Assembly (NCBI GenBank): GCA_036559745.1
Contig: DATBSO010000050.1
Span: forward strand, 35,972 to 99,971
DNA: 64,000 bases
DNA from: Gemmatimonadales bacterium
GTDB taxonomy: Bacteria > Gemmatimonadota > Gemmatimonadetes > Gemmatimonadales > GWC2-71-9
Direction of reading: 5' to 3'
This document shows, piece by piece, positions 122 to 64,000 of the stretch. Every line of letters starts with the position of its first letter. Position 1 is the stretch's first letter. The notes below the pieces were generated by a model. The model did no database searches. It saw nothing but the letters and a program-made list of their open reading frames with translations, and was not told the origin of the DNA. The position numbers were made by a program, and so were the translations under genes.

Positions 122-141
122 TTGGGTAACGCTCCGTTGAT

Positions 142-228
142 GGCTGAAGGCTAAAGGCTGAAGGCTGGAAGCTTCCAGTCTTCGGGCTTAGCCTTTAGCC
201 TTTGGCCTTCAGCCTCTAGCCTCCAGCT
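142..228. repeat. Inverted heptamer-array hairpin element, copy 1 (GGCTRAA x4 / YYYAGCC x6 around the CTGGAAG|CTTCCAG core)
   Basis: 142-172 reads GGCTGAA GGCTAAA GGCTGAA GGCTGGA AGC. 187-228 reads CTTAGCC TTTAGCC TTTGGCC TTCAGCC TCTAGCC TCCAGCT. There is a perfect central palindrome CTGGAAGCTTCCAG. The arms are imperfect reverse complements. Confidence 0.8.
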
Positions 229-1150
229 TCGCCGCCATCTGGACGACGTTCTGCGCCATCCGCGCCGACGCCGCATCGATCATGCGGCCATCGAGCTGAG
301 CCGCGCCGCGGCCCTCGCGCGCGGCGTGGTCCAGCGCGACCAAGATCCGTTTGGCCTTTTCGACCTCGGCGGGCAACGGGGTGAAGATCTCGTTGGCCAG
401 CTCGATCTGCGAGGGGTGGATCGCCCACTTTCCTTCTATACCCAGTGCGGCGCCCCGTCGCCCGGCCGCCCGGTATCCCTCGGGATCCTTGAAATCCCCG
501 AACGGCCCGTCGATCGGCCGCAGCCCATACGCCCGGCAGGCGACCACCATCCGCGAGATTGCGGCATGCCATTGGTCGCCGGGGTAGTCGGGATTGAGTC
601 CCCCGATACTCACGGTGCGCGCCCGGCAGCTCGCCGCATAGTCGGCCACGCCGAAGTGCATCGCCTCGAGCCGGCGGCTCGACTGCGCGATCGCCTCGAC
701 GTTGGCCATCCCCAGCGCGGTCTCGATGAGGACGTCGATCCCGATCCGGTGCGGGATCGCTTTCGCCTCCTCGATCTGGGTGAGCAGCGCGTCGACCAGA
801 TAGACATCCGAAGCTACGCCGACCTTGGGAATCAGAACGGTGTCGAGACGATGGCCGGCCTGCTCCACGACGTCCACCACGTCGCGGTACATGTAGTGGG
901 TGTCGATACCATTGATGCGGACGCAGATGGTCTTGCCGCGACCACGCCAGTCATGCTCCAGCAGTCCCGCAATCGTGTTGCTGCGGGCGCGCTCCTTGTC
1001 GCCGGGAGCGACCGCGTCCTCGAGGTCGAGAAATACGTAGTCCGCACCGCTCTCCAGTGCCTTGGCGAACATCCCCGGCTGGGACCCGGGAACGGCCAGC
1101 TCACTCCGCTGCAGCCGAGCGCGCGCCGGCTCGTGGCGCGTATGACTCAT
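209..1150 (-). CDS. mcl: L-malyl-CoA / beta-methylmalyl-CoA lyase (HpcH/HpaI-CitE aldolase family)
   Basis: Internal ATG of ORF 209..1540 (MSHTRHEP...). Contains FLDLEDAVAP, VRINGIDT..YRDVVDVVEQAG, IPKVG, DGPFGDF and GKWAIHPSQIELANEIF, which I recall as closely resembling characterised Mcl. The ATGA overlap with the sgaA stop is at 1147-1150. Confidence 0.85.
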   Translation of the reverse strand: MSHTRHEPARARLQRSELAVPGSQPGMFAKALESGADYVFLDLEDAVAPGDKERARSNTIAGLLEHDWRGRGKTICVRINGIDTHYMYRDVVDVVEQAGHRLDTVLIPKVGVASDVYLVDALLTQIEEAKAIPHRIGIDVLIETALGMANVEAIAQSSRRLEAMHFGVADYAASCRARTVSIGGLNPDYPGDQWHAAISRMVVACRAYGLRPIDGPFGDFKDPEGYRAAGRRGAALGIEGKWAIHPSQIELANEIFTPLPAEVEKAKRILVALDHAAREGRGAAQLDGRMIDAASARMAQNVVQMAAKLEARG

Positions 1151-34380: not shown

Positions 34381-34423
34381 CAACAAAACACGAGCGGCGG
34401 GACTGCCGAAGCAATCCCGCCGC
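34381..34423 (-). terminator. Rho-independent terminator of ssrA
   Basis: On the minus strand: GCGGCGGGA-ttgcttcggcag-TCCCGCCGC, followed by tcgTGTTTTGTTG. It begins 7 nt after the tmRNA 3' end. Confidence 0.65.
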
Positions 34424-34429
34424 TGATGA

Positions 34430-34793
34430 TGGAGGCGCAGGGAATCGAACCCTGGTCCGAGTAAGCATCCAGAACAGCGTCTACGTGCGTAGGCCCGGCT
34501 TCTTACCGTGGCCGCGGGGTGGTGCCGAACCCACCTCCCCTTGGTCTAGCTCCGTGCTACTCTCACCGTCGGCGTCGGAGCGACGCGTCAGGCCAGTCCG
34601 GTTTTGCGATTCGACGAGCGGCGCCCCGGACGGGCTCCACCAGCCGAAGGCGCGTCAAGCGAGACTAGCTCAGCTTACGCGGCCAATGCCAGGTTAGAGT
34701 TGGCAGTTGAAGCATTCCAGATGGTTTTACCAGGATTCTGGACCTGGGCACGCTGCTATCCCTTCCACAAACCCGTCGAAGCCAGTCGCCCCC
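34430..34793 (-). ncRNA. ssrA: tmRNA (SsrA), standard one-piece form, about 364 nt
   Basis: The 5' end GGGGGCGACTGGCTTCGACGGG pairs with the 3' end ...GGTTCGATTCCCTGCGCCTCCA (7-bp acceptor stem with G3:U, T-arm present). Tag reading frame GCC AAC TCT AAC CTG GCA TTG GCC GCG TAA = ANSNLALAA (34704..34675). The 3' CCA is not encoded. Confidence 0.92.
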
Positions 34794-37982: not shown

Positions 37983-38962
37983 GCCACCGCGGCGACCGGC
38001 TCGAGGTAATTGAGGAAGATGGTCTCGGCTTCGGCGATGGATTCGATGGCGAAGAGGCGCTGCCTCAGCTCGCTGGCCCCGTGCAATCCCTTGGTGTACC
38101 AACCGAGATGCTTGCGGAACTCGAGCACGGTCTTGCGCGTGTCACCCTGGAGACGGATCGCGCGCCGGGCGTGTTCCAGCGCCACGCGAAAGCGTTCGGC
38201 GGCCGGTGGAGCATCGGGCGCACGCTGGCCCTCGAGGAGTGCCCGCCCATCGCGGAAAAGCCACGGATTGCCAAAGGCGCCCCGACCGACCATGGCGCCG
38301 GCGCATCCCGTGTGGTCACGCATGCGCACGATGTCCTCGGCCGTCATTAAGTCGCCGTTCCCGATTACGGGAATGTCCAGCGCTTCGACCACCCTGGCGA
38401 TCTCGTCCCACCGCGCCTTCCCGGAAAACATCTGGGTGCGGGTCCGGGCGTGCAGGGTGAAGGCTCGCGCACCGGCATCCTGCATTCGAAGCGCGATACC
38501 CACCGGGTCCCGCGTCTCGTCGCTCCACCCGCTGCGCGTCTTGACCGTCACCGGCAGGTGGGTCGCTCCGATGACCGCCCGGATGATCCGCTGCACCAGG
38601 TCGAGATCGCGGAGACACCCGGAGCCACCGTTACGATGCACGACCTTCTTGACCGGACAGCCGAAATTGATGTCGATGAACTCGGGCTCGTAGTGCTCCG
38701 TGATGAGGCCGGCGGCCTCCGCCATGGCCCCCGGGTCCGCGCCATAAATCTGGATCCCGATCGGTCGTTCAATCTCCTCGAACTCGGCGCCCTCGAGCGT
38801 GGTTCTGATGCGCCGCCGGATCGCCTCGGAGGACAGAAACTCCGACAGCACGACATCGGCCCCCATCGCGCGACAGATCTGGCGAAATGGTGCCTCCGAC
38901 ACTCCGGCCATCGGAGCGAGGATGAGCGGGAAAAGATGCGCGGAAGGATAGGGCAACTGCAT
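37979..38962 (-). CDS. dusB: tRNA-dihydrouridine synthase
   Basis: LILAPMAGVSEAPFR, IDINFGCP, GSGCL, VTVKTR.GW, HARTR.Q. Confidence 0.85.
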   Translation of the reverse strand: MQLPYPSAHLFPLILAPMAGVSEAPFRQICRAMGADVVLSEFLSSEAIRRRIRTTLEGAEFEEIERPIGIQIYGADPGAMAEAAGLITEHYEPEFIDINFGCPVKKVVHRNGGSGCLRDLDLVQRIIRAVIGATHLPVTVKTRSGWSDETRDPVGIALRMQDAGARAFTLHARTRTQMFSGKARWDEIARVVEALDIPVIGNGDLMTAEDIVRMRDHTGCAGAMVGRGAFGNPWLFRDGRALLEGQRAPDAPPAAERFRVALEHARRAIRLQGDTRKTVLEFRKHLGWYTKGLHGASELRQRLFAIESIAEAETIFLNYLEPVAAVA

Positions 38963-39077
38963 GGGGAGAAAATACTTGGCGGCACGATCAGGTGCAATGG
39001 AACGGGTCCCACGGCCAGTTGTAACCGCTTTTCTCCCGCGTTCGTCATATTAGGCATCCCCACGACCAGGAAACGCC

Positions 39078-47916: not shown

Positions 47917-49200
47917 TCAATTCGCTCCCGCGAGCCTCGCGACGAGCTGATCGCGCGGCACCGCGACCTGCGATTTGTCCTCGAGATTTCGGAGCATGAC
48001 CTCGTTGCGAGCCCGTTCGTCCGGACCGATCAAGACAGCCCACCGCGCATGCCGGGCATTCGCCAGGTTGAGCTGCTTGCCGAGAGCGAGCACGTTCAGG
48101 GCGTACTCCACACGGAGGTTCGCGTCGCGGAGCTCGTGGGCCGTCGCGAGAATGTGAGGCAGGTCGTCACCCGTGATGCCCGCGATGAAGACGTCGATGG
48201 ACGGAGTTGCCTCGGGCGTGACGCCCCGATCCTTGAGCAGCTCTCCCAGCACGACGTCCCCCATGCCGAACCCCAGCGCGGGAAGATCCACGCCGCCCAG
48301 AGACTCGAGCAGGTTATCGTAGCGCCCGCCGCCGCAGATCGCCCGAAGCGACTGGTCGGCGTCGAAGAGCTCGAACACCGTCCCGGTGTAGTACGCGAGA
48401 CCGCGAACGATCGTGAGATCGAGATCGACGAAGCCGCCGAGCCCCATGGCATCGAGCGCCTCGAGCGTGGAGCGCAGCGGCTCGGCGGCTGAACCGGCGC
48501 CCGGATACTTGCGCACGATCTCGTCGAGGTCTACAAGACCCTTGAAGGACTCGAGCTCTCGAACAGCAGTCTCGGGCGCGCCGGTATCCAGCAAGGCCTG
48601 CTTTCGCGACGCATATTCCCGCCGTCCCATCTTATCCAGCACCTGATGGGCCAGCCTTTCCCTTTCTCCGCCGAACCCGAGAGATGAAAGGATCGCCCCG
48701 AGCAGACGACGATCTGAGATTCGTACTCGGACATCGTCCGGCCCGAGCTGAAAAGCCCGCATGACGTCGATCGCGAGGGCCACGATTTCGGCATCACCGA
48801 GCGGGCCCCGCTCGCCGATCAGATCGCAATTGAGCTGAAAGTGCTCTCGAAGCCGCCCCCGTTGCTGCCGCTCGTACCGGAAGAGCTGAGGGATCGAGAA
48901 CCACCGGATCGGTTTCTTGAGGCTCGTGGCGCTCGCGGCGACCATGCGCGCCAGCGTGGGCGTCATCTCGGGCCGCAGGGCCACGTCCCGTTCGCCCTTG
49001 TCCGTGAAGGCGTAGAGCTGGCCCACGATCTCGTCACCGCTCTTGGCGGTGTACAGCTCGAGCGGCTCGAGCGGCGGACCGTCGTACTCCTCGAAGCCGT
49101 AGCGGGCCGCCACCGTCCGCCAGGTGCGGAAGATGTAAGCGCGGAGCGCGAAGTCGCCCGGGTAGAAATCGCGAAAGCCCGGCAGGGCCTGGGTTTGCAT
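47917..49200 (-). CDS. hisS: Histidine--tRNA ligase
   Basis: Internal ATG (MQTQALPGFRDFYP...). Contains RPEMTPTLARM, F.IPQLFRYERPQ-like, and GGGRYD. The upstream 60 codons of the track ORF are the repeat element. Confidence 0.9.
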   Translation of the reverse strand: MQTQALPGFRDFYPGDFALRAYIFRTWRTVAARYGFEEYDGPPLEPLELYTAKSGDEIVGQLYAFTDKGERDVALRPEMTPTLARMVAASATSLKKPIRWFSIPQLFRYERQQRGRLREHFQLNCDLIGERGPLGDAEIVALAIDVMRAFQLGPDDVRVRISDRRLLGAILSSLGFGGERERLAHQVLDKMGRREYASRKQALLDTGAPETAVRELESFKGLVDLDEIVRKYPGAGSAAEPLRSTLEALDAMGLGGFVDLDLTIVRGLAYYTGTVFELFDADQSLRAICGGGRYDNLLESLGGVDLPALGFGMGDVVLGELLKDRGVTPEATPSIDVFIAGITGDDLPHILATAHELRDANLRVEYALNVLALGKQLNLANARHARWAVLIGPDERARNEVMLRNLEDKSQVAVPRDQLVARLAGAN

Positions 49201-49220
49201 GGGGGGAAAATAGACTGGGC

Positions 49221-49360
49221 AGGGGAGCGGGGAGAAGGGAGAGGGACAGGAGAAGGGAGAAGCGGGAAAGGGAGAACGGCTGTGCGTCATCCCTCTTCTC
49301 CAGTCTCCCTTCTCCCTTCTCCCTTCTTCCTTCTTCCCGCTCCCTGCTCCCTTCTCCTCA
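49221..49360. repeat. Inverted heptamer-array hairpin element, copy 2 (AAGGGAG-type array 49221-49277 / CTCCCTT x10 array 49291-49360)
   Basis: The right arm reads CCCTCTT CTCCAGT CTCCCTT CTCCCTT CTCCCTT CTTCCTT CTTCCCG CTCCCTG CTCCCTT CTCCTCA. The left arm is its purine-rich imperfect complement. The loop contains GCGTCAT. Confidence 0.8.
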
Positions 49361-50596
49361 CACCTCCATCCCCAACGCACTCATCACGTCGCCCACCGTG
49401 TGAAAGGAGCCGGTCACGAGGACCGTGGCCGCGCCCTGTGGCGCGATCTCGAGCGCTTCCCGGAAGTCCGGGACCAGGCTCCACACCGATCGCGCCGGAG
49501 GGCGGCCCCGGTCCCGGAGCCATCGGCGCAGCCATCGCGCGTCCCAACCCCGTCCCGCGGCGGTCGGAGCGATCGTCAGGATTCCCCGGTCGATCACCCG
49601 GTCGAGCTCAACCAGCATCTCGGGCCACTCCTTGTCGCCCAGGATGGAGACGAGCGCGTGGAGCGGCCGCGGCGGCTTGATCGCCTCGATCGCGGTGACG
49701 AGGGCCCGGATACCGTCCGGGTTGTGCGCCACGTCGAAGAGCCACTTGCCGCGCCGGTCGAGCCTCCCGGGAATCCTCGCTTGGGCGAACCCGCGCTCGA
49801 CCGCCTGGGCATCCGGACGATAGGGCGCCGGCAGCGCCATCAGGACGCCATGGGCGACTCCCGCGTTGCGCCGCTGGTGGGCGCCAGCCAGGCTGAGCGA
49901 GCCCTTCCATTCGTACTCCGGCGGAAGCACCCGGATATCGGGACGCGCCGCGTGATCCAGCCGCGCGATCGCCTTCCGCGCCTCTCGCCGCAACACCTCG
50001 ACCAACCCCGGGGCGCGCTCCCCGATGACGAACGGCGCACCGGGCTTGGCAATCCCGGCCTTCTCACAGGCGATGAGCTCGAGCGTGTGTCCCAGATACT
50101 TCATGTGGTCCCATGCGATCTTGGTGACCGCGCTGACGAGCGGCTGGATGACGTTGGTGCTGTCGAGCCGGCCTCCCAGCCCCACCTCGACGACCGCGAC
50201 CTCGACGCCACGCGCCGCAAAGTCGGCAAAGGCGATCGCCGTGCTGGCCTCGAAGAACGTGGCCTTGTGATTCAGGATCGGGTCGCGCAGCCGGCTGGTC
50301 CACATTGCCAAGGCGTCCTCCGAGATCGGCACGTCGTCTACCCGGATGCGCTCGCGGAACGACACGAGGTGGGGCGACGTGTACAGGCCAACCCGCCACC
50401 CCGCGCCCCGAAGAGCGGCCGCCACGAGGGTGGAGACGCTTCCCTTGCCGTTCGTCCCGCCGATGTGGACCATCGGCACCACGTCCTGAGGATTCCCCAC
50501 TGCCTCCAGGAGACGACGCGTGGTGCCCAGCCCAAACTTGATGGTCGTGGTCCGGGGGAAGAGAAAAGCGAGGGCGTCGTCGTAGGTCAGGCTCAT
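49358..50596 (-). CDS. folC: Bifunctional folylpolyglutamate synthase / dihydrofolate synthase
   Basis: HIGGTNGKGS, TSPHL, EVGLGGRLD.TN. ATG 50596 is preceded by AGGA. Confidence 0.85.
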   Translation of the reverse strand: MSLTYDDALAFLFPRTTTIKFGLGTTRRLLEAVGNPQDVVPMVHIGGTNGKGSVSTLVAAALRGAGWRVGLYTSPHLVSFRERIRVDDVPISEDALAMWTSRLRDPILNHKATFFEASTAIAFADFAARGVEVAVVEVGLGGRLDSTNVIQPLVSAVTKIAWDHMKYLGHTLELIACEKAGIAKPGAPFVIGERAPGLVEVLRREARKAIARLDHAARPDIRVLPPEYEWKGSLSLAGAHQRRNAGVAHGVLMALPAPYRPDAQAVERGFAQARIPGRLDRRGKWLFDVAHNPDGIRALVTAIEAIKPPRPLHALVSILGDKEWPEMLVELDRVIDRGILTIAPTAAGRGWDARWLRRWLRDRGRPPARSVWSLVPDFREALEIAPQGAATVLVTGSFHTVGDVMSALGMEV

Positions 50597-58996: not shown

Positions 58997-59033
58997 GGGT
59001 CCTCGAGTCATTGAGGGAAAGGAGAGGGACCTT

Positions 59034-60299
59034 TCACCCTTCTCCGTCGTGTGGTCCCAACCGCATGACGGTCTGCCGCGCCGCCGGAAAGAATTCCGCG
59101 GCGACCGCGCCGACATCGCCTGGAGTCACGGCATCGATCTCCGCAAGCATCGCGTCGAGCGGCCGGTAGGCGTCGTTGTGGAGCTCGAAGCCCGCCAGAC
59201 GGCTCATGCGGGCCGCGGGACTCTCCAGCGAGAGCATGATCTGCCCCTTGAGCTGCCGCTTTCCGTCGGCGAGCTCCGCGTCCGGCAGACCCTCGCGCGC
59301 TATCCGCTCGTATTCCGCGGCGATGGCATCGATGGCGGCATCGGCCGTTCCCGGCTGAGTGCCGACGTAGACGCCGAGTTGTCCCGAGCTCTGATAGAAC
59401 TGCTTGTAGGCGAAGATCGCGTAGGCCAGTCCCAGCTCCTCGCGGACCCGCTGGAACAGCCGGCTCGACATGCCTCCACCGAAGGCATTGGTAAGGATCG
59501 CCAGCGAAAAGCGCCGCTCGTCACGGAGCGGGAAGGTATCCGTCCCGAAGACGATATGGGTCTGCGTCGTATCCCGCTCCTCACGCCGCCGTTCACCGCG
59601 AAGCGCAGGCGCGAGTTCCACGGGAGGCCGCACCGACTCGCGCCCGTTGCCGTCCAACCACCCTTCCCGGCTCAGGGCCTCGAGCAGCGGGCCGTGCTCG
59701 AGGTTCCCCGCGGCCGCGATGACGCAGTTCCCACGGTGGTATCCGCCGTGGTGCAGCGCCTTCAGGTCCGTCGCGGAGATGCCCGCGAGGGTGTCGGGCG
59801 TTCCGAGGATGGAGTATCCGTATGGATGTCCGGGCCACAGCGCGGCCGCATGGAGCTCGAAGACCAGATCGTCCGGCGTGTCGGCGACGCCGTTGATCTC
59901 TTCGAGAATCACGTTCCGTTCGGGCTCGAGATCGGCGTCGCGCAGCAGTGGACGTCGCACGAGATCGGTGAGAATGTCCACCGCAAGCGCGACGTCCTCG
60001 TCGAGAACATGGGCCTGGTAGCTGGTGTAGTCGCGGCCGGTGAAGGCGTCCAGACTGCCGCCGCGGACCTCGAGCTCGAGGGCGAGCTGCCGTGCGGTCC
60101 GCCGCTCGGTGCCCTTGAACACCATGTGCTCGAGCAGGTGGGAAATTCCCATCTGACCGACCGGCTCGTGGGCGCTGGCCGTCCGTACGTAGACACCCAC
60201 GGCTGCCGAGCGCACGGCCGGGAGCCGTTCACTGAGGACGACGAGTCCGTTCGGCGCCGTGGTGCGGTACAGCCCTTCGTCGAGGCGAACCGTGTCCAC
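59034..60299 (-). CDS. M16-family zinc peptidase (insulinase/PqqL-like)
   Basis: GISHLLEHMVFKGT (HxxEH) ... the distal E region. Sits in the usual pnp-adjacent position. Confidence 0.8.
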   Translation of the reverse strand: MDTVRLDEGLYRTTAPNGLVVLSERLPAVRSAAVGVYVRTASAHEPVGQMGISHLLEHMVFKGTERRTARQLALELEVRGGSLDAFTGRDYTSYQAHVLDEDVALAVDILTDLVRRPLLRDADLEPERNVILEEINGVADTPDDLVFELHAAALWPGHPYGYSILGTPDTLAGISATDLKALHHGGYHRGNCVIAAAGNLEHGPLLEALSREGWLDGNGRESVRPPVELAPALRGERRREERDTTQTHIVFGTDTFPLRDERRFSLAILTNAFGGGMSSRLFQRVREELGLAYAIFAYKQFYQSSGQLGVYVGTQPGTADAAIDAIAAEYERIAREGLPDAELADGKRQLKGQIMLSLESPAARMSRLAGFELHNDAYRPLDAMLAEIDAVTPGDVGAVAAEFFPAARQTVMRLGPHDGEG

Positions 60300-62549: not shown

Positions 62550-62810
62550 CTAGTGACGGAGACCGAGCTGCTCGATCAGAGCCCGGTAGCTCTCGAGGTC
62601 ACTTCGCTTGAGATACGTGAGCAGTCTGCGGCGGGTGCCGACCATCTTCAGGAGGCCGCGGCGGCCGTGGTGGTCCTTCGGGTGGGTCCGGAAGTGATCG
62701 GTGAGCGAATTGATCCGCTCGGTGAGGAGCGCCACCTGCACCTTGGTGGATCCGGTGTCGTCCGGGTGGGCTTGATGCCGGGCGGTGACCGCCTGCTTGT
62801 CGAAGCTCAT
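62550..62810 (-). CDS. rpsO: 30S ribosomal protein S15
   Basis: Internal ATG (MSFDKQAV...). Contains DTGST.VQVALLT.RI..LT.HF..H.KDHH.RRGLL.MV..RR.LL.YL. AAGAGGA lies upstream. Confidence 0.9.
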
Positions 62811-62861: not shown

Positions 62862-62890
62862 ATTATAACCAGCTTCGGGCTCATGGGCAA
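62862..62890 (-). promoter_or_regulatory. rpsO promoter candidate TTGCCC-N17-TATAAT
   Basis: A perfect -10 TATAAT (reverse complement of 62862-62867). The -35 TTGCCC is the reverse complement of 62885-62890. It sits immediately downstream of heptamer hairpin copy 3, about 45 nt upstream of the rpsO ATG. Confidence 0.55.
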
Positions 62891-62892
62891 GC

Positions 62893-63012
62893 GGAGGAGG
62901 CTAGAGGCTAAAGGCTCGAGGCTCTTTCCCGGGCATCGTCCTAAGTCCGCGTCATGAGCCCCTAGCCTTTAGCCTCCAGCCTTCAGCCTCTGGCCTTTAG
63001 CCTTTAGCCCCC
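62893..63012. repeat. Inverted heptamer-array hairpin element, copy 3 (GGCTNRA array 62899-62924 / YYYAGCC x7 array 62961-63009)
   Basis: The left arm reads GGCTAGA GGCTAAA GGCTCGA GGCTC. The right arm reads CCTAGCC TTTAGCC TCCAGCC TTCAGCC TCTGGCC TTTAGCC TTTAGCC. The spacer is about 31 nt and contains GCGTCAT. Same unit family as copy 1. Confidence 0.8.
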
Positions 63013-64000
63013 AAACAGCCGCCGGATGTCGTTCGAGAAGGCGAGTCCCATCAGCAGGACGATCAGGACCATCCCCAGCATGCTGAGCCGTTCCCGAAGC
63101 TTGATCGGCAACGGGCGGCGGGTGATTCCCTCGGCCAGGAGAAAGACGAACTGGCCCCCGTCGAGGATCGGGACTGGGAGGAGGTTCAGGATGGCGAGGT
63201 TGATCGAGATAAGGGCCATGAATGCCAGGAACGGGTCGAGCCCCATCCGGGCGCTCTCTCCCGCGAGCTGCCCGATCATGATCGGTCCGCCCACCTCGCG
63301 CTTCGAGATCCGGCCGCTGAAGAGTCCACGGATGGTCCGGATGATCTGGGTGGACGACGAGACCGTCGAGTTCCAGCCCTCCACGATCGAGGCCGGCAGG
63401 GACAGCGTCTCCGAGCGGAAGTTCGTTTCCACTGCCACACCGATACGGCCGACCGGGCGGCGAACGCCGTCCACGTCGGTGAGTGTATCCACCTTGGGCT
63501 GGACCGGCAGCGTCAGGTGCTCCGATCCCCGCGCAAGCTCGAACGCGAGAGGACGTCCGGGCTCACGCCGGAGAATTTCCAGCAGGTCGTACCACTGCTC
63601 GACCCGTTGTCCATCGACCGCCAGGATCGTGTCCCCCTTCGCCATCCCCGCGTGCGCCGCGGGGCGACCCGGGATCACCTCCCCGATGACTGCCATCCGG
63701 AACGGCTGAATCGCCTGGGAGGCCTTGAGGCGGCCTTCGAGTGCATCGGGGTGGAGCGGCACCTCGACGCTTTCACCATCGGAGAGCTCGATGCGGACTT
63801 GCCGCTCGGGCGCGCTGATCACCCCTTCCTCGATCTCATTCCACGAGGAGACCGGCCGGCCGTTGATGGCCACGATCCGCTGCCCCGGGCGCAGGTTCTT
63901 GAGCGCCTCGGCCCCGGCCGGCACCAGCTCGGGCACCACCCGCCCGACCGTCGTGGCGGGGTCGATTTGTCGCCCGTTCTTGGCCGCGAGAACCGTGAAC
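63004..64000 (-). CDS. rseP: RIP metalloprotease RseP (M50 site-2 protease), C-terminal part; the gene continues beyond the window
   Basis: PDZ segments (GRPAAHAGMAKGDTILAVDG), then the C-terminal ISINLAILNLLPVPILDGG (NxxPxxxLDG motif). The HExxH part lies upstream of the window. Confidence 0.8.
   Translation of the reverse strand, partial: FTVLAAKNGRQIDPATTVGRVVPELVPAGAEALKNLRPGQRIVAINGRPVSSWNEIEEGVISAPERQVRIELSDGESVEVPLHPDALEGRLKASQAIQPFRMAVIGEVIPGRPAAHAGMAKGDTILAVDGQRVEQWYDLLEILRREPGRPLAFELARGSEHLTLPVQPKVDTLTDVDGVRRPVGRIGVAVETNFRSETLSLPASIVEGWNSTVSSSTQIIRTIRGLFSGRISKREVGGPIMIGQLAGESARMGLDPFLAFMALISINLAILNLLPVPILDGGQFVFLLAEGITRRPLPIKLRERLSMLGMVLIVLLMGLAFSNDIRRLFGG

Follow-up and report, generated by a model that had tools for sequence, protein, structure and literature searches.

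The Gemmatimonadales DNA analysed here (64,000 nt, called the window; G+C content 67.7%) raises the question of what two facing arrays of 7-base units are doing in the gap between folC and hisS, and of how they came to be there. The 140 bases at 49221-49360 that make up this gap form a long hairpin, both arms of which are stacks of such units, and the genes around it all lie on the minus strand. This element (copy 2 of three in the window) is an inverted pair of intergenic heptanucleotide simple sequence repeat (SSR) arrays, with ~10 units of GGAGAAG, a 14-nt loop and ~8 units of CTTCTCC, and it belongs to a lineage-wide class of heptamer hairpins adjacent to stop codons. The explanation that we favour, and hold to be moderately probable as a whole, is that such inverted arrays are driven by slippage, are dispensable, and serve at most as terminator or insulator hairpins without a U-tract; the terminator or insulator role is its weakest and least certain step.

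A paired heptamer array between folC and hisS

The first-pass annotation, made from the sequence without database searches, described ten heptamers at 49291-49360, an imperfect complement at 49221-49277, and a folC stop codon at the end of the last heptamer. All of this agrees with direct reading of the sequence, with repeat finding and with folding. The right arm divides exactly into ten 7-mers, and the last of these, CTCCTCA, carries the folC TGA (49358-49360, minus strand); parsed from the stop codon in the sense of the mRNA, the array opens with TGAGGAG, made up of the stop codon and 4 more nt. Tandem Repeats Finder (TRF) reports a period-7 array at 49295-49357 (9 copies, 82% matches, score 77) and another at 49221-49276 (~7 copies, 70% matches), and a repeat search pairs the two arms in 17 inverted-repeat registers that are 75-93% complementary. 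RNA folding of the minus strand over 49190-49390 gives -106.2 kcal/mol, against -79.4 +/- 4.4 for dinucleotide shuffles (z = -6.05, with 0 of 200 shuffles equally good); folded as DNA, copy 2 gives z = -4.0. The 144-nt element alone forms ~53 base pairs at -85 kcal/mol, a G+C-rich stem-loop 3' of the folC stop. The double unit GGAGAAGGGAGAAG, allowing at most 2 mismatches, occurs 11 times in the window where 0.54 are expected, and 9 of the 11 occurrences lie inside copy 2. Because the spacer sequence is the same in three independent assemblies (the window and two metagenome contigs of the Joint Genome Institute, JGI), copy 2 is no assembly artefact. It occupies the whole gap from the folC stop to the hisS -10 box, and the last units of its 3' arm sit where the -35 region of a hisS promoter would be expected.

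The loop is not conserved, since a relative's homologous element (locus L164) has only GGGCCC at the same place. GCGTCAT, which had been pointed out as common to copies 2 and 3, does not survive as a loop motif: it is an ordinary 7-mer, with 24 occurrences in the window against 14 expected, and is missing from copy 1 and from the L164 element.

Copies 1 and 3 do have the architecture of copy 2 with a different unit, AAGGCTA in both, as TRF and the sequence confirm (Table 1). This unit alone is common to the two; their loops and flanks are unrelated. The copy 1 array reaches two units into the upstream gene, so that the stop codon (209-211) lies inside the array and the last residues of the product (..KLEARG*) are encoded by repeat units. 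Copy 3 ends 4 nt short of the -35 box of rpsO, and both boxes of that promoter are conserved in L171, L172 and L174 (the -10 box being TATATT in L171 and L174).

Start codon and putative promoter of hisS

An open reading frame (ORF) runs from 49380 into the body of hisS and includes an upstream in-frame ATG (MTHSRSPF...), which would make part of copy 2 an N-terminal extension of HisS. A start at this ATG, sought as a refutation of the annotated non-coding element, was not found. HisS is called at 427 aa by JGI, an identical 427-aa protein is also at NCBI, and relatives' HisS aligns from residue 1 (tblastn), with sequence upstream that is unrelated or absent; the gene calls and alignments therefore place the start at 49200 and leave copy 2 non-coding. 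A -10 box also stands between the upstream ATG and the true start. The extension is rejected on these grounds, and we find it hardly credible.

It had also been noted that hisS begins 20 nt after the element (ATG at 49200-49198) without a Shine-Dalgarno sequence, and this is correct. Of 149 Gemmatimonadales hisS loci, 145 have a TANNNT hexamer whose end is 5-8 nt upstream of the ATG (104 of them with a gap of exactly 6 nt), and a Shine-Dalgarno-like tetramer precedes hisS in none of the 149. Since the -10 box is conserved right before the ATG and no Shine-Dalgarno sequence is present, hisS is very probably leaderless across Gemmatimonadales, to judge from these sequences; this is the most likely reason why the Shine-Dalgarno sequence is missing in the window, where the -10-like box lies 6 nt before the ATG. 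A leaderless hisS would be of use for annotation in a phylum where a Shine-Dalgarno sequence is used by only ~22% of genes, as we read the value of 22 that a survey tabulates for Gemmatimonadetes (PMC10783764). In one clade with 9-nt spacers, the hisS box (TAAATT or TAGATT) overlaps the stop codon of the upstream gene.

If hisS is leaderless, its mRNA would start downstream of copy 2, and control of hisS translation by the hairpin is therefore unlikely. A cis-regulator of hisS might act by translational coupling or occlusion, or as an attenuator-like leader, with GGAG and CUCC arms that mimic Shine-Dalgarno and anti-Shine-Dalgarno sequences. The closeness of copy 2 to the ATG, the GGAG within its units, and an extended fold that pairs the end of folC with the start region of hisS all lend something to this idea. 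Yet relatives without the element, or with other units, keep the same promoter, and hairpins of this architecture also follow unrelated genes and lie between convergent ones. Nor does copy 2 resemble a known leader: an Rfam scan at gathering thresholds returns tmRNA only, with nothing for copy 2 and no T-box, and a scan by E-value returns only sub-threshold generic microRNA-hairpin models. A known RNA family, T-box or other aminoacyl-tRNA synthetase leader is rejected, given the lack of any Rfam match above noise and an apparently leaderless hisS. Control of hisS by copy 2 is thus unlikely in general, and a dedicated cis-regulator highly so.

Heptamer hairpins across Gemmatimonadales

The hisS loci of 160 relatives were gathered with up to 10 kb on each side, 1.9 Mb in total (L-numbers denote these relatives' loci). 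The best relative from genome and metagenome scans has 69% HisS identity; closer ones came from protein search, exact look-ups and identical S15 proteins. The census covers hisS neighbourhoods and a few rpsO neighbourhoods of Gemmatimonadales. Genes of the relatives were called by a crude ORF filter based on G+C content at third codon positions and curated by eye, and context counts are approximate; automatic calls of flanking-gene orientation are error-prone (antisense ORFs), so these counts were curated by hand.

Among tandem arrays of at least three copies in the 1.9 Mb, period 7 is the commonest, with 124 arrays against 74 of period 6, 38 of period 8 and 30 of period 9. A complementary array lies within 150 nt of 49 of the 124 heptamer arrays, as compared with 0 for a control with reversed units and 7 for a control with complemented units. 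No period-6 array (of 74) has an inverted partner at this distance, and two with period 9 (of 30) do. A scan that starts instead from inverted repeats (loci of the first 81 relatives plus the window) finds strongly 7-periodic arms in 19 of 154 hairpin clusters; periods 8, 9 and 10 account for 4, 1 and 4. Merging the scans yields 30 candidate elements, ~28 of them convincing, with medians of 5 units per arm and a 27-nt loop; copy 2 is among the largest. The unit differs from element to element and the two arms of each element match: complementarity of the arm consensus is 6.1/7 within an element and 4.2/7 between elements (best rotation and orientation).

The position of these elements is as characteristic as their build. 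The stop codon of a flanking gene lies no more than ~12 nt from the outer edge of an arm in ~26 of the 28 curated elements, and it usually constitutes the first three bases of the first unit, as in TAATGCG GAATGCG x3, TGAGAAG AGAGAAG x3, TGATTGC GGATTGC.. and, in copy 3, TAAAGGC TAAAGGC... Between convergent genes the hairpin is flanked by both stops (e.g. L014 15825/15939 and L021 7904/8004), and in copy 1 and L166 the array takes in the final codons of the upstream gene. No element between divergent gene starts was verified among the ~28, with gene calls that are crude and curated by eye. At the downstream edge, arrays end just before the -10/-35 box or the Shine-Dalgarno sequence of the next gene, so that the element makes up nearly the entire spacer. 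A stop triplet occurs within the sense-arm unit for 15 of 28 units (counted by eye), often in phase with the real stop, which fits units seeded from a heptamer consisting of the stop codon plus 4 nt. In L166, at 97-140, three CGGAGAA units encode the C-terminus of an M16 peptidase.

The same unit is found at distant sites of one genome in 6 of 30 pairs, against 5.6% between genomes, although the pairs are not independent. This hints at genome-specific unit families, as in Xanthomonas. Examples of recurrence are AGATTGA in L014 (9857-9888, 11308-11340 and 15827-15939), GTGAGAA in L027 (187-249 and 9885-9956) and AAGGCTA in copies 1 and 3 of the window.

Hairpins of the same architecture with 10-nt units are also seen (L025 16326-16466, L027 1393-1470, L090 434-579, and L035 19798-19884, which equals L106 10368-10454). 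Their arms are, for example, GCGTTCATCT x3 facing CAGATGAACG x3, or GGCGGTAnnn facing TACCGCCCAT x4-8, and an inverted partner accompanies 8 of 14 period-10 arrays. Hairpins of this kind show that the build is not strictly bound to 7 nt.

Gain, loss and change of unit number

The folC-hisS junction varies widely among the nearest relatives. L164 (HisS 81% identical) has the unit family GGAGAAR in 5+4 units around a 6-nt loop, where the window has 10+8; L163 (HisS 84%) has the pyrimidine array only; L166 (HisS 79%) has another unit, CGTTCAC; L165 has almost no element; and L167 (HisS 79%) has none, with a 17-nt spacer and the same -10 box. Over the whole order, co-directional spacers before hisS are at most 12 nt long in 59 of 114 cases, and of the 36 that reach 35 nt or more, only 12 show significant structure. 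On these counts the idea that hisS needs a conserved hairpin upstream is rejected. Relatives that lack the element have spacers of 9-17 nt, and the hairpin must therefore be dispensable for hisS. Taken together, gene calls and sequence comparisons show copy 2 to be, as far as such comparisons reach, both non-coding and dispensable for hisS. In three relatives a different inverted-repeat element, GTCATCCCGAGCGAAGCGAGGGAT ... ATCCCTCG..CTCGGGATGAC, fills the folC-hisS spacer (Table 1).

The junction that holds copy 3 was retrieved from relatives by an exact search with the S15 protein. Between L171 and L172, rseP shows 1 difference in 900 nt and rpsO none in 261, and still the hairpins differ by a 14-nt indel, that is, by two units. 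An indel of two whole units between near-identical sequences shows the slippage process directly. At a greater distance, 46% of third codon positions differ between the window and L171; a hairpin is present at the rseP-rpsO junction in both, with unrelated loops. The unit is GGCTAAA in the window and GGCTACA in L171, and this A/C change in one arm is mirrored as T/G in the other. Compensated unit differences are found at another junction as well (AATGCGG in L036 and L129, GATTGCG in L070, TCGGTCA in L127).

Whole units are thus added to and removed from arrays at a much higher rate than that of point substitution, and arrays come and go at a given junction. That one mechanism has acted on different seeds, as was proposed from copies 1 to 3, is supported by the same build with unrelated units in many Gemmatimonadales genomes and by the two-unit indel of L171 and L172. 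These loci amount to natural experiments, in which a single junction has an array, lacks it or has one of another size, an indel of two units separates near-identical strains, and unit changes are compensated in both arms.

Comparison with known repeats

The closest precedent for the class is in Xanthomonas. The genomes of Xanthomonas campestris and X. axonopodis each carry ~185 arrays of the heptamer GGGAATC, mostly in inverted pairs of neighbouring arrays, of which a genome has 70-75 (Rehm et al. 2015, PMC4692102). On average 28 nt separate such an array from the upstream ORF, and few lie between divergent genes; length and sequence vary between close species, and no function is known (PMC4692102). 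The Gemmatimonadales elements share the intergenic tandem 7-nt units, the inverted pairing of arrays and the location near the 3' end of an upstream ORF, and the copy 2 unit GGGAGAA has in addition a GGGA core and the potential to form G-quadruplexes (G4). They differ in three respects. Xanthomonas has one genome-wide unit family, read through G-quadruplexes, where a single genome here has both GGAGAAG and AAGGCTA; the Gemmatimonadales units are mostly not G-rich and most are unable to form G-quadruplexes; and the arrays here start at the stop codon (0-12 nt) and take up the spacer as far as the next promoter.

Other heptamer repeats are more distant. In many prokaryote genomes the heptanucleotide is the most frequent long-SSR unit, mostly in non-coding DNA, and polymerase slippage has been proposed as the origin (Mrazek et al. 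2007, as cited in PMC4679880 and PMC4692102). The dominance of period 7 and the two-unit indel found here agree with this; the survey, as it is cited there, concerns direct arrays, in contrast to the paired inverted arrays, arm covariation and stop-codon position of the present class. The TAACTGA repeats of marine Beggiatoaceae, cyanobacteria and Bacteroidetes have a single fixed unit, are located just upstream of start codons and are almost always direct (1 inverted in 170; MacGregor 2015, PMC4679880). Along with the short tandemly repeated repetitive (STRR) sequences of cyanobacteria, they resemble the present arrays in being intergenic tandem heptamers whose units often contain stop triplets, such that three units stop all three frames. 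Those are direct arrays mostly before starts, however, whereas these are inverted pairs anchored at stops and built from variable units. The 3' arm of the folC-hisS hairpin at L023 2289-2433 does consist of TAACTGA units (TGACTGA TAGCTGA TAACTGA x3 CACCTGA x2), and L005 has TAGCTGA x2 at the corresponding place.

Repetitive extragenic palindromes (REP), bacterial interspersed mosaic elements (BIME) and miniature inverted-repeat transposable elements (MITE) are likewise intergenic imperfect palindromes after genes, and such elements can stabilise the upstream mRNA. REPs are high-copy 20-40-nt sequences associated with a RAYT transposase; the heptamer hairpins, by contrast, have their own unit at each site, a 7-nt period and no full-length consensus. 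A small mobile element that inserts after stop codons would account for recurrence of a unit within a genome, including the AAGGCTA of copies 1 and 3, and the unrelated GTCATCCCGAGCGAAGCGAGGGAT element does occupy the same spacers in some relatives. It would not account for units that differ from site to site, for unrelated loops and flanks in copies 1 and 3, or for variation in whole 7-nt steps. Moreover, no terminal inverted repeats, target-site duplications or transposase link are seen, and copy 2 has no match in a plasmid collection. We judge mobility of this sort to be very improbable.

The first-pass annotation suggested that the homopurine/homopyrimidine asymmetry of copy 2 might allow H-DNA. 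For copy 2 this is physically possible, as predicted from a mirror repeat with 14-nt arms and a 4-nt spacer (at most 1 mismatch) and an uninterrupted run of 35 pyrimidines (49304-49338); the arms are 93% purine or 93% pyrimidine. G4 formation is possible too, given motifs of the form G3N1-7 x4 on the plus strand of the left arm. Could triplexes or G-quadruplexes then be the point of the arrays, through effects on replication, supercoiling or the hisS promoter? The related GGGAATC arrays of Xanthomonas form G4 in vitro, but they too are without a function that has been found (PMC4692102), and at copy 2 a long Watson-Crick hairpin or cruciform competes. Above all, homopurine units are a minority in the class and most units lack G-runs (non-homopurine examples being AAGGCTA, ATTGCGG, AGATTGA and TGAGCGG), so H-DNA or G4 cannot explain the class, and we consider a non-B DNA role quite improbable. 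The Gemmatimonadales hairpins separate architecture from sequence: one build is realised with many unrelated units, which excludes G-quadruplex or single-binding-site explanations as the general logic.

Neither the excess of heptameric repeats among bacterial SSRs, reported in 2007 (as cited in PMC4692102), nor the inverted heptamer arrays after genes, described in Xanthomonas in 2015, have so far an accepted function or an accepted reason for the length of 7 nt. No description of heptamer hairpins in Gemmatimonadota was found in the literature searched. To go by the sequences compared here, inverted heptamer arrays as such are already known, and what appears to be new is a variable unit, mostly without G4 potential, in arrays that start at the stop codon.

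Origin and possible function

Hairpin terminators without a U-tract have been proposed for high-GC bacteria. Like Rho-independent terminators, the elements of the present class are G+C-rich stem-loops right after a stop codon, occur also between convergent genes and are followed by a promoter; unlike them, copy 2 has no U-tract, a stem of ~53 bp where 5-14 is usual, periodic arms, and no indispensable role. The main rival to slippage is that the hairpin is selected as a terminator or insulator that lacks a U-tract, ends the accD-folC transcript and shields the hisS promoter. Its many pairing registers would let the stem form while the terminating ribosome still covers the first units. This we regard as possible but doubtful. 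The start of the hairpin at the stop codon in nearly all elements, its place between both stops of convergent genes, the promoters directly after copies 2 and 3, the persistence of hairpin and promoter at rseP-rpsO across 46% third-position divergence with compensated unit changes, and the failure to verify any element between divergent gene starts are all as such selection would have them. It is less easily squared with the missing U-tract, or with the absence of the element from the folC-hisS junction in most relatives. Some elements, moreover (e.g. in L019), stand directly before a Shine-Dalgarno sequence with no visible promoter, where termination would cut off the downstream gene.

Two properties of the class bear on such selection, and neither speaks for it. 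Folding energies of sense and antisense RNA for 22 co-directional elements divide 10 to 12 (p = 0.83), and this lack of asymmetry means that there is no G-U signature of transcript-level selection. The lengths of the two arms correlate weakly across the class (r = 0.21), so that balanced arms as a sign of selection are not supported. Both results fit an origin at the level of DNA.

In the slippage account, arrays lengthen and shorten in 7-nt steps, as expected of slipped-strand mispairing, and the complementarity of the arms would be kept either by templated repair or template switching from arm to arm in an extruded hairpin or by selection for pairing. An array could start only beside the stop codon, because spacers between genes of this lineage are often just ~9-17 nt long, and might then expand up to the promoter or ribosome-binding site of the next gene. 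The folC transcript would carry a hairpin of ~53 base pairs beginning at its stop codon, whose most plausible effect is to hinder read-through into the hisS promoter or to protect the folC 3' end.

Several observations weigh against this account. Slippage by itself accounts neither for the creation of the inverted arm nor for the preference for 7 nt, and it leaves unexplained that distant sites of a genome can share a unit. As for the residual role as a terminator, there is no U-tract directly after the copy 2 stem, a consensus terminator scan of 48900-49700 finds no terminator-like site at copy 2, and the only T-run nearby is the hisS -10 box, 9 nt away. This genome does have canonical U-run terminators, one of them after the tmRNA gene, so classical terminators are used at some of its genes. 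They are not enriched in the window (6 against 5.5 expected, 7 against 7.4, and 14 against 7.9). Strong selection at the RNA level is disfavoured where there is no G-U strand bias, and any function must be optional, since most relatives have no hairpin upstream of hisS.

In a further reading, the hairpins would be no debris of slippage but actively generated and maintained elements at gene ends, of a kind that Gemmatimonadales, Xanthomonas and cyanobacteria have in common in principle. Hairpin-templated synthesis by a particular polymerase, the binding of a factor with 7-nt periodicity or a similarly dedicated process would seed an array on the heptamer of stop codon plus 4 nt and keep the arms complementary. 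The product would be a terminator or translation-insulating stem that needs no U-tract and tolerates shifts of register. Pointers in this direction are the stop triplets in 15 of 28 units, the recurrence of units, and the compensated changes over 46% third-position divergence; we nevertheless think active generation unlikely. Against the background of slippage-driven arrays, which we continue to prefer, two questions become testable: whether the hairpins act as terminators or insulators free of a U-tract, and how their arms stay complementary.

Table 1. Positions of the features discussed, in window coordinates unless a relative's locus is named
Feature	Position	Strand	Remarks
Copy 2, 5' arm (mRNA sense)	49291..49360	-	TGAGGAG AAGGGAG CAGGGAG CGGGAAG AAGGAAG AAGGGAG x3 ACTGGAG AAGAGGG
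Copy 2, loop	49277..49290	-	14 nt, ATGACGCACAGCCG in mRNA sense
Copy 2, 3' arm (mRNA sense)	49221..49276	-	~8 pyrimidine-rich heptamers, TTCTCCC-type, imperfectly complementary to the 5' arm
folC	49358-50596	-	JGI gene call, Mur_ligase_M/C domains; stop TGA 49358..49360 = first 3 bases of first heptamer
hisS coding sequence, 427 aa	47917..49200	-	start ATG 49200-49198
-10-like box TATTTT	49207..49212	-	6 nt (CCCCCC) 5' of hisS ATG; putative leaderless promoter
Copy 1, heptamer-array hairpin	136..229	-	unit AAGGCTA
Copy 3, heptamer-array hairpin	62895..63013	-	unit AAGGCTA; from rseP stop TAA (63004-63006)
rpsO promoter	62862..62890	-	TTGCCC-17-TATAAT, 10/12 consensus matches, directly after copy 3
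Two-heptamer insertion GCAAGCT ACAGGCT	L171 2816-3001 vs L172 2026-2225		5' arm of the rseP-rpsO hairpin
GTCATCCCGAGCGAAGCGAGGGAT-type element	L024 5529-5679; L089 382-567; L091 290-522		looks like a MITE-type insertion

Further observations

The gene upstream of copy 1 has a putative product that resembles, by eye only, the HpcH/citrate lyase beta subunit. Beyond copy 3, rpsO has a 5' untranslated region of ~50 nt between its near-consensus sigma-70 promoter and the S15 start at 62810. The tmRNA gene of the window lies at 34393-34793 (minus strand) and encodes the tag peptide ANSNLALAA; the terminator after it, at 34393-34424, has a 14-bp stem and a T-run.

A miniature relative of the copy 2 unit surrounds the stop codon of the M16 peptidase gene at its junction with the alanine dehydrogenase gene (59013-59045, minus strand), where the sequence reads GGAGAAGGG TGA AAGG TCCCTCTCCTTTCCCTC. 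Full heptamer hairpins, each with its own unit, are present at this junction in L013, L019, L027, L029, L038, L165 and L166.

Within the hisS coding region of one clade, ~610 nt in, a heptamer-like repeat AAGCGGG is found in 3-5 copies (L053 9182-9209, L062 10614-10641, L050 679-709, L109 1907-1933 and L116 6771-6805); period-7 arrays within an essential gene such as hisS are unexpected. A dus-like gene of the window may be a second leaderless gene, as its upstream sequence GTATTTTCTCCCCATG (38960-38974, minus strand) consists of TATTTT, 6 nt and ATG, arranged as in hisS; in the relative L165 the TATTTT box of this gene is missing.

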